A stretch of DNA of 64,000 bases. Origin: an uncultured Planctomycetia bacterium. GTDB lineage: Bacteria; Omnitrophota; Gorgyraeia; 2-02-FULL-51-18; JAGOUK01. Shown here one piece after another: positions 6,004 to 53,846 of this stretch. Location of the stretch: NCBI GenBank assembly GCA_964430735.1, contig CAYSFB010000001.1, forward strand, positions 232,674 through 296,673, given 5' to 3'. Numbering within the stretch: position 1 is the first letter of the stretch; each line of letters opens with the position of its first letter. The notes under the pieces were generated by a model. It ran no database searches. It was not told the DNA's origin and saw nothing but the letters and a program-made list of their open reading frames with translations. The translations under genes were made by a program, and so were the position numbers.

Positions 6004-7823
6004 TACCGGTCGGTTTTTGAATTCCGAGAGTAGTAGTGGTACCCCTGATAATAATCCCGGTTCAGAGTCGTCATACGGTTCAAGATCGTTCCGTAGAGAA
6101 TGGTGTTCATCAGCTTCAGTTTTTCAATCGCCCGCATCAGCACTTTGCGCTTCAGCATCCCGCAGCCGACGACAAAGAGGGTTCCGTGCATTTTCTGGGA
6201 AATGATCGCGGCTTCCGGAATGCTGAGGAAAGGAGGCGAATCAAAAATGATCCGCTCGTACTTCGATTCGACCGCTTTGATCAGCTCGTCAAACGTCTTT
6301 GAAGTGAACAATCCTTCGGGATTTTTGGAAGCGGTGCCTGCGGAGATGATGTCGACGTTGGGCTGGCCGATGATGGGGCGGATGATCTGCTGAAGGGTCG
6401 CCGCGCCGGTCAAATAATCGGCCAAGCCCGGGGCCGACGGATCCGCGAGATCCAAGCGTCCGGTGAGCCCGGGTCTGCGGATATCGGCCTCAACCAGAAG
6501 GATCCGCTGCTCCGGCAGCCGCTCCGCCGCTCCTTTGCCGGCACCCAGATTCGCCATCGTAAACGCCAGGAGGGCGCTGATGGATGACTTCCCTTCCCCG
6601 GGTATGCAGCTCGTGATCATGATGAGCTTGTTCCGATCCTTGGGCATCGAAAAAATAAACGCCGTATGCAGCATGGCCATCGAGTCCCGGACGGCCTGAA
6701 CGTTCAGAAGATCTTCAAATTTTTCGGACTTGCAGACCTTCGAGTCGATGACGGGCATATGCCCCAGATACGGGACATTCACCATTCTCGCGAGGTCCTC
6801 CTCGCTGTTCACCGTCACGACCAGCGCGCCCATGAACATGATGAACATAAAAGAAACTATGATCCCCGCGGCGCCGAAGACCAAAACGAGCTTGGTGCGG
6901 TTCGGAGCAAAGGGCTCGTCCGCGGGCTTGGCCCGTTCAAAGATGCTCATGTTGGTGGACTTGAACTCGCTGGCGAGGTTCCGCTTGAGGCCGGCGACCA
7001 CACCGGCGGTCTCGATCTTGGTCTGCTGTTCGTTGTGCTCAATCTGGCGGAGCATTTCGATCACGGCGGGATTTTCGTCCGTGTACCGGGTCTTGAGCTG
7101 CGCGAGTTCGCTGTTCAGCCGCAATTTTTCGCGTTTGAGCTCTTGGATCGTCGGATTGTCCTGTACGCTCGGAAGACTTTCGATAAAATACGGATCGGCC
7201 ATTTTTTCCATCAGAACCGTCGGATCCGATTCCGCGCCGCCGGGAAGCAGCTTCAGCAGCTCCTGATTGCTCCTGAGACTCTGACGAAGACTCTCCTCAA
7301 TAAAGTTCTCGGCGGTCGCATTCGCGAGCTTGGACGCCCACACGGCATCGCCGTCATCCACTTGAATGTAAAAAATATTGGTTTTTTTGTACTGGAAGGA
7401 GCGGGTGTTTGCCTGCAAAAGGCCGGCTGCCTGCTGGTCGGTTGCCACGGCATAGTGGGTCTTGGCGTCCGTATCCTTCGCCGCCTGGAGGAGCACGGGC
7501 ATGCTGGTCGCTATGGCGATCTGCGTGTCAATCAGCCCCCTCACCTCGCCCGACATATTGCCGCTGATCGCTTCTCGATAGGTCGTGGTCTGTGTTTTGG
7601 CGTTGTCGACAAGGATGCTGGCGGAGGACTGATATCGGTCTTTGAGCGCGGAGGCGTAAAAAATTCCGAGGAGAACGAAGGCAAAAACAATAGTGGCGAC
7701 ATACCAGCGGTACCGCATGAACGATTCCGCGAGTTGAATAATCCCGGTTATCTCGCCCGAATCACCTTCATGTGATCCGTGATGCGGGTGATGCTCGGCG
7801 CCCCCGCTGTTCACGTTCAACAC
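6003..7823 (-). CDS. wzc: polysaccharide co-polymerase / BY-kinase (Wzc-like tyrosine autokinase)
   Basis: N-terminal TM followed by a periplasmic coiled-coil, second TM, Walker A CIPGEGKSSISALLA, ILLVEADIRRPG, and a C-terminal Tyr cluster YYQGYHYYSRN. GTG start at 7823; His-rich N-terminus. Confidence 0.85.
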   Translation of the reverse strand: MLNVNSGGAEHHPHHGSHEGDSGEITGIIQLAESFMRYRWYVATIVFAFVLLGIFYASALKDRYQSSASILVDNAKTQTTTYREAISGNMSGEVRGLIDTQIAIATSMPVLLQAAKDTDAKTHYAVATDQQAAGLLQANTRSFQYKKTNIFYIQVDDGDAVWASKLANATAENFIEESLRQSLRSNQELLKLLPGGAESDPTVLMEKMADPYFIESLPSVQDNPTIQELKREKLRLNSELAQLKTRYTDENPAVIEMLRQIEHNEQQTKIETAGVVAGLKRNLASEFKSTNMSIFERAKPADEPFAPNRTKLVLVFGAAGIIVSFMFIMFMGALVVTVNSEEDLARMVNVPYLGHMPVIDSKVCKSEKFEDLLNVQAVRDSMAMLHTAFIFSMPKDRNKLIMITSCIPGEGKSSISALLAFTMANLGAGKGAAERLPEQRILLVEADIRRPGLTGRLDLADPSAPGLADYLTGAATLQQIIRPIIGQPNVDIISAGTASKNPEGLFTSKTFDELIKAVESKYERIIFDSPPFLSIPEAAIISQKMHGTLFVVGCGMLKRKVLMRAIEKLKLMNTILYGTILNRMTTLNRDYYQGYHYYSRNSKTDR

Positions 7824-8474
7824 TTAGAACAGGGACTCCGGAACGTAAATGGAATCACCCCGGGAAATGGCCGGATCTTCCGCGCGTCCTTCGAGCACAT
7901 CGAACAGATTGTACACCTTGGTCTGGCGGGTTCCGGTCGCATACGACACGACTTTAACGGCACGCGGATTGGCGGAAACGCCGAATCCACCAGCCTGCGC
8001 AATCGCCTGAAGGAGGGTTGAACCCTCGGGATTCAGGGCTTGAAGCCCCTGGCTCTTCACCTGGCCGAGCACGATCACCGTATTGGCGTCCGCCGCTTGC
8101 GAGCCGTTGCTATTGATCGCCTCTTCGACATGGTCGATCCGGACCAGCGGATCTTTGATGAACTTTTTAAGACCCTCGGTCAGCGCCACCCTGAAGCTTT
8201 CCATCGACAGTCCGGCCGCCTGGGCTTCTCCGATCATCGGAAAAATGATCTTCCCTGTTTCGTTGACGCGGTACTGGCCGGTCAGATTCTTTTCGTTAAA
8301 GACATCAATGGCCAGCAGATCCCCCGTCGAAATGACTCGGTGGGCGGCTTGCGCGGTGGCGGACACAGGAGCCGTTTCGCCCGCGTCGGCGGCGCAGAGG
8401 GAGGCCGAAAACACCACAAGTCCGGATAGGGCCAGACCGAAAAATCGGCTGAGGCCTTTAGAATTTTTTTTCAT
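7824..8474 (-). CDS. short outer-membrane polysaccharide export (OPX/Wza-family, Poly_export+SLBB) protein
   Basis: Signal peptide MKKNSKGLSRFFGLALSGLVVFSASLCAA, then a Poly_export-like region and an SLBB-like C-terminus. Only 216 aa, so it lacks the Wza C-terminal OM helix. Track start 8534 trimmed to ATG 8474. Confidence 0.75.
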   Translation of the reverse strand: MKKNSKGLSRFFGLALSGLVVFSASLCAADAGETAPVSATAQAAHRVISTGDLLAIDVFNEKNLTGQYRVNETGKIIFPMIGEAQAAGLSMESFRVALTEGLKKFIKDPLVRIDHVEEAINSNGSQAADANTVIVLGQVKSQGLQALNPEGSTLLQAIAQAGGFGVSANPRAVKVVSYATGTRQTKVYNLFDVLEGRAEDPAISRGDSIYVPESLF

Positions 8475-9924: not shown

Positions 9925-10353
9925 TTACGGAGTTACGATGGTGCCGGACGGCGTTTCGACCAGCAGCAGGTTTTGGTTCGCCTCGACAATCTCGTCTTCT
10001 TGCGCGGCCGTGAGGTTCTCGCCCAGCGCCGCGATCGATTGCTGCTCCAGAGTCGCTTCTTCGATCTGAGTTTGCGCCTCTTCAACTGCCGCATTGAGCG
10101 CCGCGCGCTCGGAGTCCGTAATGCTGGAATCCGCCAATTTCGTCATTACCGCCGCCAAAGCCTCTTCCGCAAGCACACGGCCGTAGGACTTCAATCCGGC
10201 TTGGGCGTCCGCCTGGGTGTAGGGGCGGTAGGTCCCTGAGCCCTCGTCAAAAAACACCTTGTACGGGTTCTCGAAGGTCGGCTTCAGCGAAGCGGCCATC
10301 CCGGGCGCCGCGATTCCCAAACACAGAGCGAGAATCAATGCTGATTTTTTCAT
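9925..10353 (-). CDS. secreted hypothetical protein
   Basis: Signal peptide MKKSALILALCLGIAAPGMAAS; Ala/Glu-rich helical C-terminal half; no recognisable family. Confidence 0.5.
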   Translation of the reverse strand: MKKSALILALCLGIAAPGMAASLKPTFENPYKVFFDEGSGTYRPYTQADAQAGLKSYGRVLAEEALAAVMTKLADSSITDSERAALNAAVEEAQTQIEEATLEQQSIAALGENLTAAQEDEIVEANQNLLLVETPSGTIVTP

Positions 10354-11225
10354 GATTTGCTCCCGGTAGTCTTTTCATCCATGCTCAAGCTGAACATCAG
10401 TTCACCAGAAAAATTATGCACCTTTGTGCTGCCGTCCGGCTCAAGTGTTCCCACGGACATGACAGAATCGGGTCCCTCCAAACGGAACGTGAGCGGCGCA
10501 AAATCCGGTTGCAGCACCAACGTTTCCCCCGGAATCAGGCTTCTAAATTCACGGCCGGAAGCCGTAGGAACCGCGATCTCGGCCTTCTGTGCATGCAACA
10601 CGCGAAGGGTTTCTTGTGACTTCCTGTCGGAGCGCAAATAGTCAATCGCGGGACCCAGCTTGGCGATGACTTTGGCCGCACCGCGGGGAATCAATGAATG
10701 CGTCTTGATCTTTTCGGATCCGGAAACCAGCGCCGTGCTGCCGGACTCGAGGCTGATTTCCGGCTCACCGCCGACGGGGCGGATTCGGGCAGGGCGGCTG
10801 GAGTTGGCCAGCGAAACGAACGTGCTGTTCGCGCGGCTGAAAAGATAAATGTCGCCGAATCCGTTATCGGTCACGACCTCGAACTTTTCGGTCGCCAACG
10901 CGAGTCTTGGAGCGTCGCGGACGATCAGCTCGCCGACACGGAGTGTAATCTTGGTCTCCTGGAGCAATAGGGAGGAATTCTGAAATATTTGAAGATATCC
11001 ACCGCTGGCTTTTTGAAGAAAAAGCACCCCGCCCACATCGACGGTAATGCGCTCATCATCCAGCTTGGTCTGGGGAAGTAGCGTGCTGACCGCCTTACCC
11101 TGAACATCCGTGGTATAAGCGCCCGAAGCATACAAAACCTCGTACTCGGCTGCCTGGGCTGGCGCCGTTAGTCCAAGACTTATTAAAAACAAACCGATCG
11201 AGAAGCGTAAGGCCTTCATACTCAT
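10350..11225 (-). CDS. secreted hypothetical protein (alternative leaderless start at 11219)
   Basis: Signal peptide MKALRFSIGLFLISLGLTAPAQAA. The first ATG (11225) lies 1 nt after a TATAAT box; the third codon (ATG 11219) is 7 nt after it. Confidence 0.5.
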   Translation of the reverse strand: MSMKALRFSIGLFLISLGLTAPAQAAEYEVLYASGAYTTDVQGKAVSTLLPQTKLDDERITVDVGGVLFLQKASGGYLQIFQNSSLLLQETKITLRVGELIVRDAPRLALATEKFEVVTDNGFGDIYLFSRANSTFVSLANSSRPARIRPVGGEPEISLESGSTALVSGSEKIKTHSLIPRGAAKVIAKLGPAIDYLRSDRKSQETLRVLHAQKAEIAVPTASGREFRSLIPGETLVLQPDFAPLTFRLEGPDSVMSVGTLEPDGSTKVHNFSGELMFSLSMDEKTTGSKS

Positions 11226-11295: not shown

Positions 11296-13155
11296 CTAAG
11301 CGAACTTTTGCTCTTGCCAGGCCTGGTAGAACTTCCCCCTTAGAGCGAGCAGGTCGTCCATCGCGCCGGATTCCAGAGCTTTACCGTCTTCCATGTAGAC
11401 GATATGGTCGGCGTTTCGGATGGTCGAGAGCCGATGGGCAACCACAACGGCTGTTTGACCATGCATTAGCTCGTTTAACGCTTCTTGGACCAAGTTCTCT
11501 GTTCCCGAATCCAAAGCGCTGGTGGCTTCATCTAAAAGAAGGATTTGGGACTTTTTTAACATCGCGCGAGCGATCGATACGCGCTGACGTTCTCCTCCAG
11601 ACAGCGTAACGCCCCGCTCGCCAATCACGGTATGGATCCCGTCAGGGAGCTTCTGGACCACATCCAAAAGCCGGGCGCGTCGGATCGCTTCTTCGAGTTC
11701 GCCCGCATCCACGTCGCGCTCGATACCGAAGAGGAGATTGTTTTTGAGGGTGTCCGCAAAAATCACCACATCCTGACTGACCCAGGCAACCCTCCTTCGC
11801 AGCGAGTCGATCGAATATTCCCGGATATCGATCCCGTCAATCAGAATCGCGTCCGGCGCGCAGTCATAGAAGCGCAGTAAAAGATGAATGATGGTTGATT
11901 TGCCGGCCCCACTGGGTCCGACCAGCGCCGTCATTTTTCCGCGCGGCAGCTTGAGATGAAGCCGCTTCAAAATCGGCTGACCGCCGCCGTAGCCGAATGT
12001 AAGATCTTTGACCTCGATCCCCTGCTTCAGAGACTCGAACTCCCGGACTCCGCCCTTCACATACGGTTTTCCCTCATCTTCCAAAACCTCGAGCACTTCG
12101 CGGATCGGGCTGGCAACCGATGCCAAATCGGCCTTGAACTGGTTGAAGACATGGACGGTGTAAATCATGCGTCTGAGAATATAAAAGAAGACGATGTAGG
12201 AAGCCGCCGATGCGGCCTGATGCCGGGCCATCAGCACCGACATGAAGCCGAGCATGATCAGCAAAAAAACCAGCGAAAGAATTTCCTGGGCCGGCGGAAC
12301 GATCAGCCGCTTTTGATCAATGCTGAATTCGGCGGTGAGGAGCCGCTCGCTCAGGCGACGGTATTCGGCCGTCTCGAGCTTTTCGGAACACTGGGATTGG
12401 ATCAGCGGAATCCCTTGAAGGATATTCACCGTTTTTTGGCTGAGAGCGGCGCGCGCCGAGCGGTCGGCTTCCGAGGATGTTTTAATCCGGTTGATGAGCG
12501 ATCGAAGTGAGAGCATGAGGAGCGGGATCATCAGCAACGCCACCAGCGTCAGCTGCCAGGAGATGATGCAGATCCCCGCCGCATAAATCAGAATCAGGAA
12601 CACGGCGCTCAACAGTCCGTTCAGACCAGAAAGCGCCTGCATGATGCGGACCGGATGGGTCATCAGCACTTGAGCCACTTCGCCGGTGCCGGCGCGGTCA
12701 AAATAAAGCTTTCCGAATTTGAGGTACCGATCGATCAGGAGTATCCGGAGATCGTGATTGAGCTTTCTGGCCTGATGCCAAAGAATAATTTGACTGAGGT
12801 AGGTCGCCAGACTCTTCAGAGTCATGGCCGCCACGAGCGCCAGAATCAGCAGTGCAAAAAGAGCGGTATTGGAAGACTGGGCCTCCGCCGGAAGCAGAGC
12901 GGTCACGTGCCGGATCATCGACGATTGATTCACGAATGAATAGTCGTGGGCCAAAAAACCCTGGATCAGCGGCGTCATCACAATCAGGGCCATCGCCTCG
13001 AAGGCGGAAGCGGCCAGCGCAAAGAACACCGGAACCATGATGTGTTCCGGACGCGCTTTGAGCGCCGACAAGAACTTGACTACTTTGATCGAGCCCTCGT
13101 AGAGCGCGTTCTTATTTTTCATGTTTGAAGACAAACTGGGGTAGTTTTTGAACAT
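11296..13155 (-). CDS. fused TMD-NBD ABC exporter (MsbA/PglK-like) within polysaccharide locus
   Basis: Six-TM N-terminal domain; Walker A GPSGAGKST; signature LSGGERQRVSIARAML; Walker B ILLLDEATSALD. An alternative ATG at 13122 (MKNKNALYEG) would reduce overlap with the upstream GT2 gene. Confidence 0.8.
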   Translation of the reverse strand: MFKNYPSLSSNMKNKNALYEGSIKVVKFLSALKARPEHIMVPVFFALAASAFEAMALIVMTPLIQGFLAHDYSFVNQSSMIRHVTALLPAEAQSSNTALFALLILALVAAMTLKSLATYLSQIILWHQARKLNHDLRILLIDRYLKFGKLYFDRAGTGEVAQVLMTHPVRIMQALSGLNGLLSAVFLILIYAAGICIISWQLTLVALLMIPLLMLSLRSLINRIKTSSEADRSARAALSQKTVNILQGIPLIQSQCSEKLETAEYRRLSERLLTAEFSIDQKRLIVPPAQEILSLVFLLIMLGFMSVLMARHQAASAASYIVFFYILRRMIYTVHVFNQFKADLASVASPIREVLEVLEDEGKPYVKGGVREFESLKQGIEVKDLTFGYGGGQPILKRLHLKLPRGKMTALVGPSGAGKSTIIHLLLRFYDCAPDAILIDGIDIREYSIDSLRRRVAWVSQDVVIFADTLKNNLLFGIERDVDAGELEEAIRRARLLDVVQKLPDGIHTVIGERGVTLSGGERQRVSIARAMLKKSQILLLDEATSALDSGTENLVQEALNELMHGQTAVVVAHRLSTIRNADHIVYMEDGKALESGAMDDLLALRGKFYQAWQEQKFA

Positions 13156-22577: not shown

Positions 22578-22634
22578 ATCTGCCTATCTTATTGAAAAAC
22601 TGTTAAACCTAAAGATTCTAAAAAAACTTAACCA

Positions 22635-22756
22635 CAGTTCGTTCAAAAAGCCGCATATGCGAGGCGCCGGCGATGCGACCGCGGAGGCGTAGCAGCGCTA
22701 CGCCGCACAAGGGAGCGAGCCGGCAACGAAGCAGATGCGGCTTTTTCAACGAACTG
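22635..22756. repeat. 122-bp nested palindromic element (22-bp terminal inverted repeats around a GC-rich core), copy A
   Basis: CAGTTCGTTCAAAAAGCCGCAT...(78 nt)...ATGCGGCTTTTTCAACGAACTG with 21/22 arm complementarity. Inner hairpin GGCGTAGCagcGCTACGCC. Abuts the dnaK stop codon. Confidence 0.6.
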
Positions 22757-24673
<1,917 letters not shown>

Positions 24674-35569: not shown

Positions 35570-35748
35570 AGGCCTCCGTGGTGAAGCGCTATTATAAACG
35601 ATTCTCCCCCATTAGACGCCCCCAACCCCTACAAGGTTTAGTCCCTAGACCGAGCGCCGCCCCAGCGGCGTAACTCCCCCACACGAGCGCCGCGTGCAAC
35701 GCGGCGTACGCAAAAAAACCGATTCCCAATATGCCCCAACTCAGGCCC

Positions 35749-35856
35749 ATTTTTTCCAAATAACAGGTTCAGATGCAAGGCGCGAGGGAGCGCCGCGCAC
35801 TCTACGGTGCGCAAGCTCCCGAGCAACGCAGCAGATGAGCCTGTTATTTGGAAAAA
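35749..35856. repeat. 108-bp nested palindromic element (18-bp perfect terminal inverted repeats), copy B
   Basis: TTTTTTCCAAATAACAGG...(72 nt)...CCTGTTATTTGGAAAAAA. The core has nested hairpins GGGAGC.../GCGCACcgtagaGTGCGC and the motif GCAACGCAGCAGATG shared with copy A. Ends 1 nt from the tRNA-Lys 3' end. Confidence 0.6.
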
Positions 35857-35857
35857 A

Positions 35858-35933
35858 TGGTGAGACCGCTGGGGATCGAACCCAGGACACCTTCCTTAAA
35901 AGGGAAGTGCTCTACCAACTGAGCTACGGTCTC
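35858..35933 (-). tRNA. tRNA-Lys (anticodon UUU), CCA encoded
   Basis: Minus-strand sequence GAGACCGTAGCTCAGTTGGTAGAGCACTTCCCTTTTAAGGAAGGTGTCCTGGGTTCGATCCCCAGCGGTCTCACCA folds as a canonical cloverleaf: 7-bp acceptor, GCTC/GAGC D-stem, CTTCC/GGAAG anticodon stem, loop CTTTTAA, TTCGATC T-loop. Confidence 0.9.
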
Positions 35934-40767: not shown

Positions 40768-41715
40768 ATGTCCCGACTTCGAGTGGGTGTGGTCGGATGC
40801 GGAGTCCTCGGCTCCCGCCACGCCGAAATTTATCGCCAGCTTCCGGACGTCGACGTCGTCGCCGTCGTGGATCCCCTTCCCGAAAAAGCCGAAGCGCTCG
40901 CCAAGGCCGTCGGCGCGCGGGCTTTTTCGCGCATCGAGGACTGCATCGGTCTGATCGACGCGGCCAGCGTCTGCACGCCGGCCGTCAGCCACCACCAGGT
41001 CACCCGCCCCCTGCTCCAGGCCGGCGTGCACGTGCTGGTCGAAAAGCCCATCACCACGCGCCTCGAGGACGCCGACGACCTCATCGCCCTCGCCGGGGCC
41101 AAAAAGGCGATCCTCCAGATCGGCCACATCGAACGCTTCAACGGCGCCGTCAGCACCGTCAAAAAACTCGCACAGGATCCCGTCTTCATCGAATGCGACC
41201 GCATCGGCCCTTACGACCCGCGCATCAGCGACGTCGGCGTCGTCCTGGACCTCATGATCCACGACATCGACATCGTCCTCGACCTGGTCCAGTCGCCGGT
41301 GACTTCGGTCGAAGCGGTCGGCATGAACCTTTTTTCGGAACGCGAAGACTTCGCCCACGGCCGCATCCTCTTCCGGAACGGCGCGGTCGCCAGTCTGACC
41401 GCCAGCCGCATGGCCCAGAAGCGCCTGCGCAAGATCCGCATCTTCGACAAACATCAGTACTTCTCGCTCGACTACTTCCAGCAGGAGCTCATGACCCTCA
41501 CCCGCCAGCGTGCGGCCGAAGGCCGGACCGCGTACGAGCCCGTCCCCGTCACCAAGTCCCAGCCGCTCGAAGAAGAAGTGAAGAACTTCGTTTCCTGCGT
41601 CCGCGGCGGTCAGGTGCGCGGCGTTTCGGGTGCCGACGGACGCGCGGCGCTGGCCGTCGCCCTCCAGATCCTCGACCAGATCCAGCGCAAAAAAGTTGAA
41701 AAAATCTCCGTCTGA
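40768..41715 (+). CDS. Gfo/Idh/MocA-family NAD(P)-dependent oxidoreductase
   Basis: Rossmann N-terminus VGVVGCGVLGSRHAEIY plus the EKP motif (VLVEKPIT). Confidence 0.8.
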   Translation: MSRLRVGVVGCGVLGSRHAEIYRQLPDVDVVAVVDPLPEKAEALAKAVGARAFSRIEDCIGLIDAASVCTPAVSHHQVTRPLLQAGVHVLVEKPITTRLEDADDLIALAGAKKAILQIGHIERFNGAVSTVKKLAQDPVFIECDRIGPYDPRISDVGVVLDLMIHDIDIVLDLVQSPVTSVEAVGMNLFSEREDFAHGRILFRNGAVASLTASRMAQKRLRKIRIFDKHQYFSLDYFQQELMTLTRQRAAEGRTAYEPVPVTKSQPLEEEVKNFVSCVRGGQVRGVSGADGRAALAVALQILDQIQRKKVEKISV

Positions 41716-42838
41716 CGGAAAAAAAATCCTGATCATCACCGGCGAAGCGTCCGGCGACCAGCTCGGCGCCGCGCTTGCCGTTTCGCTCCGGGAGATCGAT
41801 CCGGCCGTCCGGCTGCACGGCGTCGGCGGCTCCAAGATGGAAGCGCTCCGCCTGGACAGCTTCCGGTCGAGCGGAACCTCGCACGCCACGGGACTCACCG
41901 AAGTGCTCAAGCATCTGCCCGAATACTTCCGGCTGTTCCAACAGATCCTCGAAGACATCCGCACGATCCGTCCCGACCTCATCGTTCTGGTCGACAACCC
42001 CGGCTTCAACCTGCGCCTCGCCAAAAAATTGCTGCCGTCCGGAATTCCCGTCGTCGGCTACGTCTCCCCCCAGGTCTGGGCCTGGAAGGAAGGCCGGACC
42101 CGGACGATGGCCAAAGTTTTCAAAAAAGTCCTGACGCTGTTCGACTTCGAAGAGGATTTTTTGGAAAAGCGCGGCGTGAAGGCCAAGTGGGTGGGACATC
42201 CGATCGTCGAAGCCTGGCCGGCCGACCCGGGCCGCGCCCCCGAGCGGGATGCCGCTCCGGCGCAACGAATCCTGCTCCTGCCGGGCTCGCGTCCGCACGA
42301 AGTCCGGAAGCTCCTCCCGGTCATGCTGGAAGCCGCCGGGCGTATTTCCAAAAAATATCCGGACATCCGGTGGTCGCTCCTGGAAGCCGACACGCTGCCC
42401 GACGCTTTTTACGCGCCTCTTTTGGCCCCGGCTGCCGGCCCCCGCCTCGAACGCGTCCGCGGCGGCGACAAGCAAAAGCTTTTTCTAAAGTCCGACCTGG
42501 CCTGGGCCTGCTCCGGCACCGTCACGCTCGAATGCGCGCTCGCCCAGCTCCCCAGCATCATCGGCTACCGCACCTCCACAATCACCGTCGTCATCGCCCG
42601 CTTCCTGGTGAAGGTCAAATATCTCGGCATGCCCAACCTCCTGGCCGGCAAAGAAATCATGCCCGAACTCCTCCAAGAAAAATTCACCCCGGAAAATCTA
42701 GAGTCCCTGACGCTGAACTGGCTCCAAAACCCCTCCGCCCTCGCCCTCTCCCGCTCTTCTCTCTCGTCCATCCGCCCCCACCTAGGCGCCCCCGGCTCTG
42801 CGCAGCGCGCCGCCCACGAACTCCTCTCGCTCATCTGA
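41696..42838 (+). CDS. lpxB: lipid-A-disaccharide synthase
   Basis: KKILIITGEASGDQLGAALAVSLRE N-terminal motif and GT-B fold. Start tentatively the TTG at 41696, a 20-nt overlap with the oxidoreductase; the track maximum is 41630. Confidence 0.8.
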   Translation: MKKSPSDGKKILIITGEASGDQLGAALAVSLREIDPAVRLHGVGGSKMEALRLDSFRSSGTSHATGLTEVLKHLPEYFRLFQQILEDIRTIRPDLIVLVDNPGFNLRLAKKLLPSGIPVVGYVSPQVWAWKEGRTRTMAKVFKKVLTLFDFEEDFLEKRGVKAKWVGHPIVEAWPADPGRAPERDAAPAQRILLLPGSRPHEVRKLLPVMLEAAGRISKKYPDIRWSLLEADTLPDAFYAPLLAPAAGPRLERVRGGDKQKLFLKSDLAWACSGTVTLECALAQLPSIIGYRTSTITVVIARFLVKVKYLGMPNLLAGKEIMPELLQEKFTPENLESLTLNWLQNPSALALSRSSLSSIRPHLGAPGSAQRAAHELLSLI

Positions 42839-42842
42839 CCCA

Positions 42843-42993
42843 AGGACGCCCTGCGGCAGATGCAGGTCTTCTACGAACAGAGCCGCTCGCGCGCTGTCAA
42901 AGACTAGGCGCGCTTGCTCCTTGCTCCTCCTCGGCGGGGACGCCTCGTCGGAGCAAAAGTTCTACGAAGACCTACATCTGCCGCAGGGCGTCC
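42843..42993. repeat. 151-bp nested palindromic unit 1 (about 35-bp imperfect terminal inverted repeats)
   Basis: AGGACGCCCTGCGGCAGATGCAGGTCTTCTACGAAC ... GTTCTACGAAGACCTACATCTGCCGCAGGGCGTCCT. Interior holds GCGCGC...GCGCGC, TTGCTCC...GGAGCAA and the 23-mer CCTCGGCGGGGACGCCTCGTCGG. Begins 5 nt after the lpxB stop. Confidence 0.6.
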
Positions 42994-43025
42994 TAAATCT
43001 ATTCGCTTGAACGCAGTTGCTGGGT

Positions 43026-43176
43026 GCCCGCAGGGAGGAAGCGGTATGGCTTCGAAGGGCTTTTTGTCCGACGAGGCGTCCCCGCCGAGGAGGACAAATG
43101 GAGCGGGCGCGCCTCGTCTTAGACAGCGCGCCCGCGGCTATGCCCGGAAAAGCCATGCTGCTTCCTCCCTGCGGGC
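43026..43176. repeat. 151-bp nested palindromic unit 2 (17-bp perfect terminal inverted repeats), with interior similar to the reverse complement of unit 1
   Basis: GCCCGCAGGGAGGAAGC...GCTTCCTCCCTGCGGGC. Interior holds CCGACGAGGCGTCCCCGCCGAGG (exact reverse complement of the unit-1 23-mer) and GCGCGCctcgtcttagacaGCGCGC (about 85% to the reverse complement of the unit-1 counterpart). Ends 22 nt before the glnA stop. Confidence 0.6.
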
Positions 43177-43197
43177 AAACCGATCAACGAAGAGAAA

Positions 43198-44583
43198 TTA
43201 TAGTGTGGGAAGGTCTTTCTTGAGCTCGTACTGGGAGATGTGGTGGCGGTAGTTTTCCCACTCGATTTCTTTGTTTTCGATCAGCGAGTGGAAAATGTGG
43301 TCGCCCAGCGCCTCGCGGAGGAACTTGGACTTGCGTGCGACTTCGATCGCTTCGCCCAGGCTCGTCGGCATTTCTTCGACGCCGGCCTTCGCTTTTTCTT
43401 CGCGGGACCAGCTGACGACGTCGCCTTCGGCGGCTTTGGGAAGCTTGTACTTTTGCTCGATGCCCTTCAGACCCGCGGCCAGCATCGTGCTGAACGCGAG
43501 GTACGGGTTGCAGGCCGGGTCCGGCGAGCGGAATTCGGCGCGGGCCGTTTCGTCGCGGCCGGCCTTGTTGGCCGGGATGCGGACGAGGGCAGAGCGGTTT
43601 TTCTGCCCCCAGAGGATGTGCGTGGGCGCTTCGTAGCCGGTCACGAGCCGCTTGTAGGAATTGACCCACTGGTTGGTCACGATCGCCATTTCGCGCGAGT
43701 GGCGGAGGAGGCCGGCGACATAGGCCTTGGCCACCGGCGACATCTGGGCCTTGTCGCGCGCGTCGTAGAACGCGTTGCGCTCGGCGACGCCCTTGCGCGC
43801 CGCGTGGAACAGCGACTGGTGCACGTGCATGCCGCTGCCGTTCTGGCCTTCGATCGGCTTGGGCATGAAGGTCGCGTGAACGCCGTTGCGCAGCGCGATC
43901 TCTTTGGCGGTCAGGCGGTACGTCATCACGCTGTCGGCCATCGTGAGCGCGTCCATGTGCTTGAGGTCAATCTCGTGCTGGCCCGGGGCCACTTCGTGGT
44001 GGCTCGAATGGACGGGAATCCCCATCTCCTCGAGCGTCAGCACCGTCTGGCGGCGCATGTCGCTGCCGGTATCGAGCGGCGTCAGGTCAAAATAGCCGCC
44101 CTGGTCGGTGGGCTCGGGCTTGTCGGTCGACTTGAAATAAAAGAACTCGATTTCGGGTCCGACGTAAAACGTGAAGCCGAGCTGGGCCGCGCGCTTGAGC
44201 TGGCGCTTGAGGCAGTGCCGCGGGTCGCCCTCGAAGGGGCGGCCGTCCATGTGATGGATGTCAGCGAACATGCGGGCCACGGCGTTCTCGCGCGGGCGCC
44301 ACGGCAGGACCTGGAAGGTCTTCGGGTCGCAGACGGCGATCATGTCGTGCTCTTCGGCGCGGGCGAAGCTTTCGATCGACGAGCCGTCGACGCCGACGCC
44401 CTCCTCGAGGGCCTTGTCGAGCGCGTCGATGGTGATCGCGAAGCTTTTCAGGAAGCCGAGGATGTCGGTGAACCAGATGCGGATGAATTTGACGTCATGC
44501 TCACGGGCCTGCTGGGTCAAAAAGACGGCGGCGTCGCGGCGGGCTTTGGCTCCGGAACGGGAAGGGCTGGTTTGGGGGCTCAT
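43198..44583 (-). CDS. glnA: glutamine synthetase type I
   Basis: VKFIRIWFTDILG beta-grasp N-terminus, catalytic core ...NGSGMHVHQSLF..., and adenylylation-region-like C-terminus. Start set at ATG 44583 (AAGGAAAC RBS); an alternative ATG is at 44598. Confidence 0.9.
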   Translation of the reverse strand: MSPQTSPSRSGAKARRDAAVFLTQQAREHDVKFIRIWFTDILGFLKSFAITIDALDKALEEGVGVDGSSIESFARAEEHDMIAVCDPKTFQVLPWRPRENAVARMFADIHHMDGRPFEGDPRHCLKRQLKRAAQLGFTFYVGPEIEFFYFKSTDKPEPTDQGGYFDLTPLDTGSDMRRQTVLTLEEMGIPVHSSHHEVAPGQHEIDLKHMDALTMADSVMTYRLTAKEIALRNGVHATFMPKPIEGQNGSGMHVHQSLFHAARKGVAERNAFYDARDKAQMSPVAKAYVAGLLRHSREMAIVTNQWVNSYKRLVTGYEAPTHILWGQKNRSALVRIPANKAGRDETARAEFRSPDPACNPYLAFSTMLAAGLKGIEQKYKLPKAAEGDVVSWSREEKAKAGVEEMPTSLGEAIEVARKSKFLREALGDHIFHSLIENKEIEWENYRHHISQYELKKDLPTL

Positions 44584-44611
44584 AAGTTTCCTTTTCATGC
44601 TCCAGAAGGGG

Positions 44612-45301
44612 TCAGTCGGAGTCGGGTTGAATGAATTTGTAGCCGATGTTCCGGACCGTCTCGATAAAGGCGCGCTTCTTGATCTCGATCTTGGACCGCA
44701 GGCGGCGGACGTGAACGTCGACCGTCCGGGCTCCGCCGAAGTACTCATAACCCCAGACCTTGTTGAGCAGCGCGTCGCGGTCGAAGACCTGGCCCGGATG
44801 GCTGGCCAGGAACTTGAGCAATTGATATTCGGTGTAGGTCAGATCGACCTTGTCCCCGCCCACGCGGACTTCATAACGGCCGATGTCGATTTCGAGGTCG
44901 CCGGAGATGATGACGTTTTTGTCGGTGATCCGGTGGAATTTTTTGTAGGCAAGGACGAGGCGCGCGACGCATTCCTCGACCCGGAGCGGACGGGTGAACA
45001 CATCGTACACGCCGGCCGGGATCTGAAAGGACGGATGCGCCAGCTCCTTCACGTCGAGCACGGCGAACAGCGGAAGTTCGGCGAGCGCTTTTTCGGACTT
45101 GATGCGCTCGCAGACGGCGAGAAGGGCGGCGGAAGAAGCGGCGGAAGCCACGAGAAGCTCGGGCTTGGCTTTGGCGGCCAGATCGGCCGTGACGTCTTTG
45201 ACGGCCGCCTGACGGCTGACAAAATGCGGCGAGTCTTTGAGCGCCTGCTGAAGGGCTTTGAGGTCGTCGGAATCCGATATCAACAAAACTTTGGCGTTCA
45301 T
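44612..45301 (-). CDS. OmpR-family winged-helix regulator with atypical (Asp-less) receiver domain
   Basis: C-terminal trans_reg_C domain (LTYTEYQLLKFLASHPGQVFDRDALLNKVWG...RTVDVHVRRLR). In the receiver-like N-terminus the acidic pocket DSDD is present, but the phospho-acceptor position reads PELLVAS instead of DLVLLD. Confidence 0.7.
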   Translation of the reverse strand: MNAKVLLISDSDDLKALQQALKDSPHFVSRQAAVKDVTADLAAKAKPELLVASAASSAALLAVCERIKSEKALAELPLFAVLDVKELAHPSFQIPAGVYDVFTRPLRVEECVARLVLAYKKFHRITDKNVIISGDLEIDIGRYEVRVGGDKVDLTYTEYQLLKFLASHPGQVFDRDALLNKVWGYEYFGGARTVDVHVRRLRSKIEIKKRAFIETVRNIGYKFIQPDSD

Positions 45302-52245: not shown

Positions 52246-53625
52246 TTACGCTCCCGATTCGTCCGGCGACCTGCGGACCAGGTCGAGGTTCTGGAAGCGC
52301 GTGAATTCCTTGACGAAGGCCAGTTTGATCGTCCCGACCGGGCCGTTACGCTGCTTGCCGATGATGACTTCGGCCATGCCGCGGTTCTCCTCGGTGGGCT
52401 TGTAATATTCTTCGCGCATCAGCATGATCACCATGTCGGCGTCCTGTTCGATCGCGCCCGATTCGCGCAGGTCGGACAGCTGCGGACGGTGGTCCGTGCG
52501 GCTCTCCACGGCGCGCGACAGCTGACTGACCGCGATCACGGGGCAGTGCAGCTCGCGGGCCAGCGCCTTGAGCGAACGGCTGATGGTCGAAATTTCCTGC
52601 TGACGGCTCTCGAAGCTGTCGTCCCCCCGCATGAGCTGCAGGTAGTCGATGATGACGAGCTGGATGTTGTGCTGGGCCTTGAGGCGGCGGGCCTTGGCGC
52701 GCAGCTCCAGGACCGAAATGCCGGGAGTGTCGTCGATAAAAATGGGGGCCTTGCTGAGCTTGGCGGCCGCGTCGGTCAGCTTGGGCCAGTCGGCCTGGGC
52801 CAAAAAGCCCGTGCGGACCTTGTGCGCGTTGACGCGCGCCTGGGAGCACAGCATGCGCTGCGTCAGCTGCTCCTTGGACATTTCGAGCGAGAAGATCGCG
52901 GTCGGTATTTTTTCGACGATGCCGACGTGTTCGGTGATGTTGGTGACGAACGCGCTCTTTCCCATCGACGGACGCGCCGCGATGATGATGAGGTCGGACG
53001 GCTGGAGACCGGCCGTCTGGATGTCGAATTCGTGGAAGCCGGTCGGGACGCCGGTGATGTTTTCTTTACGCTGGTAGAGCCGGTCGATGGTCTCGATGCA
53101 GTTCTTGACGATGTCCTTGATTGCGATCATCTCGCTGCCGAAGCGGTGGCCGGCGATTTCGAAGATCGCCTTCTCCGCCCGGTCGAGGAGGGCGTCGGCA
53201 GTATCGGACGCCTCGTAGCCGTCCTGAACGATCTGCGTCGCCGAATGAATGAGGCTGCGCAGGATGAACTTCTCATGGACGATCTTGATGTAGTAGCCGA
53301 TGTTCGCGCTGGTCGGGACCGCCGCAGAAAGTTCGGAAATGTACGAGGCGCCGCCGACCGCGTCGAGCGTCTGGTCCTGCGCGAGCGCTTCGGTCAGCGT
53401 GACGAGGTCGACCGCGCGGTTGCCTTCGAACAGCGTGACGAGCGCGCGGAAAATCTGCTTGTGCGGGGGGTGATAAAAACTTTCTGGGCGGAGCTTTTCG
53501 ATCGCCTGGGGGATGGCGAGGTCGTCGATCAGCATCGAGCCGATGACGGCCGCTTCGGCTTCGATGTTGTGCGGCAGCGTCTTGGACCGGGCGAGCTCGG
53601 CCGTTTGGGAAAATTGAAGTGCCAT
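52246..53625 (-). CDS. dnaB: replicative DNA helicase DnaB
   Basis: N-terminal NIEAEAAVIGSML; Walker A ARPSMGKSAF; ...IIDYLQLM.. Trimmed to ATG 53625. Confidence 0.92.
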   Translation of the reverse strand: MALQFSQTAELARSKTLPHNIEAEAAVIGSMLIDDLAIPQAIEKLRPESFYHPPHKQIFRALVTLFEGNRAVDLVTLTEALAQDQTLDAVGGASYISELSAAVPTSANIGYYIKIVHEKFILRSLIHSATQIVQDGYEASDTADALLDRAEKAIFEIAGHRFGSEMIAIKDIVKNCIETIDRLYQRKENITGVPTGFHEFDIQTAGLQPSDLIIIAARPSMGKSAFVTNITEHVGIVEKIPTAIFSLEMSKEQLTQRMLCSQARVNAHKVRTGFLAQADWPKLTDAAAKLSKAPIFIDDTPGISVLELRAKARRLKAQHNIQLVIIDYLQLMRGDDSFESRQQEISTISRSLKALARELHCPVIAVSQLSRAVESRTDHRPQLSDLRESGAIEQDADMVIMLMREEYYKPTEENRGMAEVIIGKQRNGPVGTIKLAFVKEFTRFQNLDLVRRSPDESGA

Positions 53626-53846
53626 AGTCGTCAAACCCCCGGGGGATCGGGTAAGGAGCCGGTTGCCGCGGGGGATGTCCCGCGGCAACTGCGGCGAATT
53701 CGTCGTGATCACTCAAAACCCGTGCTCGACCGGTCTGGCCGGCGCCTCCGTTACCGCGGAACATCCCCCGCGGCTTCGTGCGCAAGCCCCGAATCCGCAG
53801 TGCTGGTGTCAGTCAGACGCCAGGCACTCGGAAACAGCTGGATAAG

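Follow-up and report, generated by a model that had tools for sequence, protein, structure and literature searches.

The window, that is the whole 64-kb stretch of DNA that was analysed, carries lpxB and glnA on opposite strands, with their stop codons converging across a 359-nt spacer (42839-43197). The real start of lpxB is probably at 41696, which gives a 380-aa product, P0001, 100% identical to the window LpxB; the closest relatives of this protein (60-70% identity) include Candidatus Omnitrophica/Omnitrophota proteins. In glnA, the first ATG probably precedes the true start (the L012 orthologue has 465 aa); the exact protein specified by the window glnA is not on record. Scans returned no promoter-like sites in the spacer and no terminator-like sites between 42500 and 43500. 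Two structured units fill the spacer; their parts and the flanking genes are as follows.

41630-42838, plus strand: lpxB, lipid-A-disaccharide synthase (ORF list; TIGR00215, 252 bits, 6e-75).
42840-42997, sense strand minus: unit 1, whole element (covariance model R1, 162.7 bits, E 2e-33).
42840-42871: left arm of the unit 1 outer stem, P1; pairs with 42966-42997, sequence locus-specific.
42880-42920, minus strand: unit 1 hairpin P3, whose GC-rich stem (GCGCGC...) is topped by a small apical stem GUC-UUU-GAC (from the folds and from helices 5 and 6 of the alignment).
42921-42956, minus strand: unit 1 hairpin P2, UUGCUCC-GACGA-GGCG-UCCC-CGCC-GAGGA-GGAGCAA on the sense strand.
42966-42997: right arm of the unit 1 P1; pairs with 42840-42871.
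42998-43023, no strand: central spacer between the divergently oriented units, not conserved and without a promoter-like site.
43024-43178, sense strand plus: unit 2, whole element (covariance model R1, 163.9 bits, E 1e-33).
43024-43052: left arm of the unit 2 P1; pairs with 43150-43178, with two G.U pairs on the plus strand.
43063-43098, plus strand: unit 2 hairpin P2, UUGUCC-GACGA-GGCG-UCCC-CGCC-GAGGA-GGACAA.
43100-43139, plus strand: unit 2 hairpin P3 and the conserved junction nucleotides GGAG and GGCU.
43150-43178: right arm of the unit 2 P1; pairs with 43024-43052.
43198-44748, minus strand: glnA, type I glutamine synthetase (ORF list; TIGR00653, 2e-139).

The first-pass annotation had described two mirrored units filling this convergent spacer, and this is confirmed. 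Unit 1 begins 2 nt past the lpxB stop codon and unit 2 ends 19 nt short of that of glnA. Some of its figures needed adjusting. The units, given as exactly 151 bp each, measure 152 to 158 nt, and the identity of their interiors, put at about 85%, comes to 80% (a 115-nt blastn alignment between unit 2 and reverse-complemented unit 1; core columns). A 23-mer reported as an exact reverse complement between the units is indeed one, enclosed in a longer 28-mer with the same property, TCCTCCTCGGCGGGGACGCCTCGTCGGA. The inner hairpins, GCGCGC-N13-GCGCGC and TTGCTCC...GGAGCAA (42921-42956), are as described; in the latter, tandem G.A/A.G mismatches lie on both sides of a covarying C-G pair. The inverted arms extend over 36 nt in unit 1 (42843-42878 and 42959-42994, 89% match) and over 28 nt in unit 2 (43025-43052 and 43150-43177, 93%). 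Counting G.U pairs, the P1 stem of unit 1 comprises 31-32 bp, and its sole non-Watson-Crick position is a G.U on the minus strand and a C.A on the plus strand. The GC content of the element is 60-70%.

Each unit is predicted to form an outer stem (P1), an internal loop rich in purines or pyrimidines and a 4-bp helix (P1b) closing a three-way junction with P2 and P3. Computed fold energies lie between -99 and -117 kcal/mol (z = -9 to -11.6), and none of 200 shuffled sequences was as stable; by this modelling, the folding of the units is far beyond chance. An alignment of 11 copies from the family described below supports all six helices. In this alignment, 96.7% of pair cells form standard pairs and 33 of the 52 pairs show compensatory changes on both sides (21 of 23 pairs in P1 undergo double changes), with none of 500 shuffles matching any of these measures. 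When, as a control, the partners were slid by 1 to 3 columns, pairing amounted to only 36-46%. An isolated pair in the internal loop of P2 (53/70) is CG in seven of the 11 copies and GC in the other four. The unpaired segments UUUU, GGAG, GGCU and UCCC are invariant, or nearly so, among the copies. The structured character proposed at first pass is borne out.

The two strands are not equivalent. In unit 1, the minus strand folds at -109.3 kcal/mol, versus -98.6 kcal/mol for the plus strand; in unit 2 it is the plus-strand fold that is stabler, by 11-12 kcal/mol (-114.5 to -117 versus -103.0 to -104.6). The sense strand, which is thus minus in unit 1 and plus in unit 2 so that the units face away from each other, gives the stabler fold in 10 out of 10 copies. 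On this strand, pairs across copies include 16 G.U against 4 A.C, and mismatches are purine-purine in 14 cases and pyrimidine-pyrimidine in one. The same strand presents the purine-rich loops GACGA/GAGGA (the tandem G.A arrangement round the covarying pair) and CGAA/GGAG. This asymmetry fits RNA best, but G.T pairs would be acceptable in a folded DNA single strand too.

The units belong to a dispersed family. With each prokaryotic species represented by one genome, a scan for the 23-mer located a complete element in L001, an Omnitrophota MAG, and a degenerate one in L002, a MAG labelled Planctomycetia. Scanning JGI metagenomes with a gapped pattern gave three further contigs (L003-L005), all from one sample. 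The covariance model R1, built from seven copies, then added a second copy in L003, a second and oppositely oriented copy in L004, two copies in L012, one in L014/L015, one full copy and three truncated ones across L016-L018, and another truncated copy in L011. Altogether, 12 full and 4 partial copies were found in Omnitrophota contigs, at no fewer than seven distinct loci and in several assemblies. Protein searches with the translated element bear on the same sequences: a six-frame chimeric query matched only P0121, a Ctp protease with a spurious N-terminal extension miscalled from the element, while an exhaustive HMMER search with the 33-aa frame returned two spurious ORFs. This translation-based route yielded one new locus (L014/L015) and indicates that databases contain few ORFs of this kind.

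Within the window, neither blastn with each unit nor R1 with filters off revealed a third copy, so the element is not multi-copy there; weak R1 matches at 53.7, 35.8 and 22.7 kb arise from the long stems at these positions alone. No further copies were found in about 40 kb of relatives' flanks, and recent identical copies were found nowhere in the set. Copy number thus looks modest (2 in the 64-kb window). Among IMG/VR sequences, the core 18-mer had four matches, all lacking the remainder of the element, and the gapped core pattern had none; hence we see no sign of a phage origin.

In all relatives examined at 60-67% LpxB identity (L012, L016, L017, L018 and L013), the element lies directly 3' of lpxB, the L013 copy being in the opposite orientation. 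It also follows lpxB in L011, a second assembly of the window's own genome. In five assemblies the contigs end just past lpxB. Other copies have different neighbours. They lie between an SLT gene and ppc (L001), after nadA and after a Ysc84-like gene (L003), next to the 3' end of nrdR (L004) and between an M3 peptidase gene and maf (L005). The copies in the window, L012, L016, L001 and L005 are placed between converging genes, and those of L003 and L004 lie beside a gene 3' end on at least one side, some far neighbours being beyond the contig ends. In L005, L001 and L016, the stems abut or overlap neighbouring stop codons. An inverted doublet in the order (-)(+) occurs at the lpxB/glnA junction (window, L012 and L016) and, independently, beside nrdR in L004; the central spacers of the L012, L016 and L004 doublets differ in sequence and length.

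The L014 copy is set between the co-directional genes gatB and ctp, begins 10 nt past the gatB stop codon, extends to the ctp ribosome-binding site and has its sense strand in the direction of the operon. This is the one informative co-directional locus supporting coincidence of sense and transcription direction; between converging genes, a unit is sense to one neighbour whichever way it points.

Conservation is concentrated in the apex of the structure. When copies are compared, identity amounts to 71-93% over the 95-nt core but to 15-67%, which is background level, over the distal arms of P1. The P1 stems, 20 to 33 bp long across copies, have in common only the proximal 7 bp or so (GNCUUC/GAAGNC) and, weakly, CC(G)G / C(C)GG at the distal end.

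Stem sequences bear the marks of DNA-level events. The lpxB 3' coding ends of L012 and L016 are about 88% identical, and one arm of the unit b stem differs between the two at just 3-4 positions. In L012, however, pairwise alignment identifies a complete unit whose stem is new and to which a 49-nt remnant is fused, the left half of an L016a-like unit. The remnant contains AGAGCCGCTCGCGCGC, identical to the window unit 1, and a 9-nt complement of it is found on the far side of the complete unit. In L016, the last lpxB codons and the stop codon recur as a 9-bp inverted copy that lengthens P1, and in L005 and L001 the end of the neighbouring gene forms part of the stem. This nesting, partial duplication and inverted copying of flanks indicates that stems are remade by templated DNA events and not by slow compensatory substitution alone.

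Core subfamilies do not track locus orthology, since the cores of L012 and L003 (93% identity for L012a versus L003a, 91% for L012b versus L003b) are closer to each other than unit 1 is to L012a (71%). Judging from the genomes compared, the lpxB/glnA synteny is old. In more distant relatives, R1 finds no match at this junction: the ends of lpxB and glnA overlap in L021 (LpxB 41% identity), where the spacer is absent, and L019 (45% identity) has a 271-nt spacer of unrelated REP-like palindromes (CGTCATTGCGAGG...). On this comparison, the spacer would seem to behave as a sink for palindromic repeats and not as an essential regulatory region.

A CAGATGC-type motif had been proposed to link the two units with hairpins at 22.7 and 35.8 kb. 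This link is not supported. The octamer GCAGATGC occurs six times in the window against 2.9 expected, a number reached by 11 of 100 shuffles; in unit 1 it sits within the locus-specific, variable stem, and it is missing from unit 2 and from the other copies of this family. The hairpins in question lie at 22634-22757 and, directly against the 3' end of a tRNA gene, at 35747-35860; they are akin to one another and to a hairpin that follows rpmE in L014. They are a second, distinct family, captured by the model R2, whose common junction reads CAUCUGCU(U/G)CGUUGC ... GCGCCU(C/U)GCAU(C/A)UG. The design of this second family is alike, with a locus-specific stem under a conserved cap, and its cap is unrelated to that of R1.

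The properties of the element were also compared with those of known elements and genes. As in miniature transposons (MITEs), copies are dispersed at unrelated loci, but conserved terminal inverted repeats are lacking, the distal arms being the least conserved part. The flanks of the 12 copies contain no direct repeat indicative of target-site duplication, a feature that the first-pass annotation had proposed looking for; no conserved tetranucleotide was found at copy ends, and no T run in the 3' flanks. A REP/REPIN unit is about 20-40 nt long; the present one, of about 155 nt, already forms a capped hairpin on its own. With Rfam 15, only tRNA reaches the gathering score in the window. Relaxing the search to E <= 10 gave only spurious miRNA/viral matches far below threshold in the spacer and nothing in the other copies; classes covered include hammerhead, twister, twister-sister, hatchet, pistol, group II intron domains, 6S and Y RNA. 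A literature search returned nothing on repeats or RNA motifs of Omnitrophota, nor the core 12-mer in any relevant context.

Three other identities were considered and rejected. A small coding ORF is contradicted by the fact that each frame contains stops in some copies, by a 1-nt indel (AAAUGGAG versus AAAGGAG) that shifts the frame between copies, and by the changes being compensatory base-pair changes. On inspection, an attC-like site does not fit either, the stem bases lacking GTTRRRY/RYYYAAC and the conserved part being the apex and not the base. The segment GAGCCG... presumably resembles domain V of group II introns, a lead that had no Rfam intron match to sustain it.

We propose, with a probability of about 0.5, that both units come from a family, apparently not described before, of dispersed palindromic intergenic repeats, about 150 nt long and found in one Omnitrophota clade, which would act as co-transcribed, cis-acting hairpins with a protein-recognised cap. 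At the DNA level, a unit would be copied, nested and remodelled, and would settle in "safe" spacers downstream of genes, in many cases as inverted doublets, with the perfect stem kept and extended through template-directed (quasi-palindrome) events. Stems that touch or run over a stop codon leave no space for a promoter of their own. With neither promoter nor room for one, any transcription would be via read-through, as 3' UTR or intercistronic RNA; for the same reason, and because several copies abut stop codons on both sides, the pair of small RNA genes suggested at first pass is unlikely. The promoterless unit would thus be read from the adjacent gene, placing in the mRNA a hairpin of about -100 kcal/mol. 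In cis, this hairpin could be a barrier to 3' exonucleases, a site for RNase III-type processing or an insulator of the converging lpxB and glnA transcripts. The conserved cap would be the recognition surface for a putative trans-acting protein, either a mobilising enzyme or an RNA-binding factor. The sequence data show the family itself, its structure, the asymmetry of its strands, its genomic settings and its remodelling as DNA; we infer transcription, the effect in cis on the mRNA and the protein partner from the features above and from the behaviour of ERIC, Correia and YPAL, which are co-transcribed hairpins affecting mRNA decay or RNase III processing (PMC2229807, PMC2649163).

Some observations run counter to this proposal. 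A single co-directional locus backs the assignment of sense to the direction of transcription, target-site duplications and recent identical copies are lacking, and copy number looks modest. In the doublets, the transcript of each gene reaches the antisense unit first. Besides, the conserved unpaired nucleotides and the G.A motifs exceed the needs of a simple stabiliser hairpin, and persistence after lpxB at 60-67% LpxB identity could reflect selection at the level of the host instead of selfish persistence. A rival reading is an RNA maintained by the host, whose cap would be a protein platform, a ligand fold or a self-cleaving ribozyme processed from 3' UTRs, with the stem serving only as a clamp. 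The very strong covariation, the invariant junction and loop nucleotides, the G.A motifs present on one strand only, a core 71-93% identical despite a randomised mid-stem, and the occurrence of the element behind lpxB in all relatives examined at 60-67% LpxB identity all speak for such an RNA. Nonetheless, we regard it as unlikely, if worth keeping in mind. Neighbouring genes are inconsistent (ppc, nadA, nrdR, maf, gatB/ctp and lpxB/glnA), and no ribozyme or other Rfam family matches even at E <= 10. The spacer is dispensable, being absent in L021 and filled with other repeats in L019, core subfamilies do not follow orthology, and nested and partial copies occur. Moreover, the sense copy of the doublet stands behind an antisense copy for both genes.

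The element can also be read entirely in terms of DNA. A REPIN-like non-autonomous element, the substrate of a single-copy tyrosine (RAYT/IS200-type) or other transposase in its folded single-stranded form, would leave the RNA hairpin as a by-product. REPINs provide a precedent (PMC3116915), and inverted doublets at two independent loci, positions in 3' intergenic niches and combined signals of persistence and turnover are all in accord with it. As G.T pairs are tolerated in DNA hairpins, the strand asymmetry, too, would suit single-stranded DNA. We consider this account rather improbable on the grounds that the unit is about 150 nt long with a three-way junction and not a REP of about 25 nt, that its ends carry no conserved tetranucleotide and that internal loops of the purine-rich G.A kind are typical of RNA.

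The idea of an ordinary bidirectional terminator common to lpxB and glnA derives from the presence of very stable hairpins between converging stop codons. The first-pass annotation had argued instead for a duplicated, inverted and structured element, and would have yielded to the terminator had there been no other copies and no conservation in relatives. Copies were found elsewhere, and relatives carry the element at the same junction. In addition, no U tract follows either unit on either strand, the terminator scan gave no site, stems of 28-32 bp carry a 95-nt structured cap, the element also lies inside the co-directional gatCAB-ctp operon, and overlapping lpxB and glnA ends suffice in a relative (L021). 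We judge this explanation highly improbable. Finally, a hairpin "guide" RNA, displaying shRNA- or spacer-like target information in a locus-specific stem on a constant scaffold, would account for variable 20-33 bp stems in the CRISPR spacer range, but it is scarcely credible given that 20-mers of both window stems have no exact match in IMG/VR, that neither unit has a further significant match in the window, that stems overlap neighbouring gene ends and are partly templated from them, and that no associated effector gene is present.

A more ambitious reading concerns the cap itself. There is an outside chance that it constitutes a new functional RNA or single-stranded DNA module, such as a self-cleaving ribozyme or a protein-recruiting fold, or else the recognition element of a new mobile "hairpin-capping" element, which would insert into long palindromes or build them by inverted copying of flanks. 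If so, the R2 family would be a sister system, pointing to a general lineage-specific system in Omnitrophota. Members of this phylum are mostly ultra-small cells. They have yet to be obtained as cultured isolates, and annotation of their non-coding repertoire has relied on Rfam alone (PMC10066038). Since the present element has no Rfam model, breaks assemblies and causes proteins to be miscalled, a covariance model would improve annotation as well as MAG contiguity. The family is a clear instance of a repeat with freely varying ends and a conserved apex, and gives direct sequence evidence for the remodelling and extension of a stem through templated DNA events. Were the cap to bind a specific protein or to be catalytic, it would represent a new RNA class; if not, the way of life of REP, ERIC and Correia would extend to another phylum. 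The value of the finding would rise sharply should the cap prove to be a new biochemically active RNA fold or the handle of a new hairpin-targeting mobile system.

Among known systems, the U-tract-less "I-shaped" terminators of mycobacteria are short, simple stems. They resemble the units in being stable GC-rich hairpins at gene 3' ends without a U run, but do not account for a conserved 95-nt three-way-junction cap or for a copy inside an operon. REP, BIME and REPIN-RAYT sequences are likewise extragenic palindromes at gene 3' ends, often in inverted doublets, that are inherited vertically, persist for long at the same positions and have the hairpin as their functional form (PMC3116915, PMC3337134; for vertical persistence of REPINs, also bioRxiv 10.1101/2021.07.10.451892). 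In REP, however, a unit of about 25 nt is conserved in sequence and it is the doublet that makes the hairpin, whereas here each unit of about 150 nt is a capped hairpin by itself.

Larger palindromes come closer. YPAL/RU-2 of Yersinia (168 bp) is also not AT-rich and has its conserved inverted repeats internally and not at the termini (PMC2229807). Its targets are regions of dyad symmetry, and insertion in or beside such regions (PMC2229807) fits the nesting of unit within unit seen here. YPAL differs in having direct duplications of 3-26 bp and known recent filled and empty sites, neither of which was found for the present family. Correia elements (CREE/NEMIS) of Neisseria share a length of 100-155 bp, closeness to genes and a conserved core, and their paired ends form an mRNA hairpin that can be bound and cleaved by RNase III (PMC2649163, PMC2229807). 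CREE, however, number in the hundreds, carry an IHF site and a TA duplication, and have terminal inverted repeats of 24-26 bp whose sequence is shared among copies; our units show none of these features. ERIC/IRU (127 bp) is similarly a non-coding imperfect palindrome in the 100-150 nt range, lying in transcribed intergenic regions in both orientations, forming a long RNA stem-loop with a conserved centre and present in modest copy number; it is co-transcribed, and its effect on mRNA decay depends on orientation (PMC2229807). ERIC, on the other hand, has short conserved terminal inverted repeats, TA ends, target-site duplications and conservation over the whole sequence, as opposed to the locus-specific mid-stem, lack of target-site duplication, GC richness and three-way-junction apex of the units. 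The likeness to MITE, Correia or ERIC elements put forward at first pass was therefore right as to the ERIC/Correia neighbourhood; it does not extend to transposon-style terminal repeats, target-site duplication or base composition. Variable ends with a conserved apex are the reverse of a transposon-like MITE with conserved ends. We would put it at even odds that the element works like ERIC, Correia or YPAL. By its features, it lies apart from MITEs, REP/REPINs, intrinsic terminators and the families of Rfam 15.

Two loci among the lpxB relatives bear on how units of the element are built. In L012, a 49-nt left-half remnant of a unit resembling the L016 copy (L016a) lies at 11161-11209, immediately before a complete unit, L012a. 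Behind L012a, at 11360-11370, is GAGAGGGCT, a 9-nt stretch complementary to this remnant. The arrangement of remnant, complete unit and complement is one of nested or partially duplicated units. In L016, the final lpxB codons and the stop codon read TCGGATAAG (7852-7860), and an inverted copy of this lpxB end, CTTATCCGA, is present at the opposite end of the unit (8000-8008). The inverted copy adds 9 bp to the outer stem, part of which is therefore templated from a coding flank.

The element leaves its mark on assemblies and annotations. Five independent assemblies (lpxB relatives L013, L016, L017 and L018, and L011, a second assembly of the window's genome) terminate 44-275 nt past the lpxB stop codon, with the contig ends falling inside the element or at it. 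Short-read assemblies are broken by the repeat. In L014, a gatB/ctp locus carrying a copy, gene callers join the element to the Ctp protease (protein P0121), whose spurious N-terminal extension of ~55 aa (10001-10170; ...SKGFLSDEASPPRRTNGASAP...) is derived from the element. The real ctp start is probably a GTG near 10170, preceded by GGAG.

Possible traces were found beyond Omnitrophota or outside full units, the first on a contig from a MAG that carries the label Planctomycetia:

L002 2861-3001, minus strand: degenerate element copy (48 bits), hairpin P2 intact, hairpin P3 decayed

Either this copy reflects a binning error or the family has spread past Omnitrophota. Two IMG/VR contigs from unrelated viruses (L007 3875-3910 and L010 8290-8325) have in common a 27-mer, GGCTCGGCGGGGACGCCTCGCCCTACC, which overlaps an 18-mer of P2; the remainder of the element is absent from both, and the 27-mer may be a different GC-rich repeat motif or a chance match. 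Adjoining the glnA stop codon in the window, TCAACGAAGA (43184-43193) is similar to the loop-proximal motif of unit 1, TCTACGAAGA, a likeness that constitutes direct-repeat family D1 in the window repeat analysis. TCAACGAAGA may be what is left of an older unit, or the likeness may be due to chance.

Covariance model R2 describes another family of long hairpins with a cap, listed here together with the tRNA gene beside one of them:

Window 22630-22761, minus strand: hairpin after a gene
Window 35743-35864, minus strand: hairpin after a tRNA gene
L014 20967-21082, plus strand: hairpin after rpmE
Window 35861-35933, minus strand: tRNA gene (Rfam, 72 bits)

The three hairpins score 101-124 bits, and no further copy was found across the loci examined. 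Their 25-30 bp stems are locus-specific in sequence, each with one stretch of A and one of T, and the junction is conserved: CAUCUGCU(U/G)CGUUGC...GCGCCU(C/U)GCAU(C/A)UG. The hairpin at ~35.8 kb starts at the first base past the 3' end of the tRNA, whose gene is the sole Rfam match within the window.

The window holds a third long inverted repeat:

Window 53665-53774: 32-nt arms, 88% complementary, 46 nt between

Its interior is unrelated, and it lies around the start region of an ORF (52246-53712, minus strand). The predicted fold is more stable on the minus strand than on the plus strand (-76 versus -66 kcal/mol).

Distant relatives differ in what separates lpxB from glnA. In L021 (LpxB 41% identical), the 3' ends of the two genes overlap by 6 nt (7120-7125), and the junction is an 'empty site' without any spacer. 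In L019 (LpxB 45% identical), the spacer (1938-2208) is occupied by unrelated REP-like palindromes, ACGTCATTGCGAGG / CCTCGCAATGACGG, present in several copies and in both orientations.
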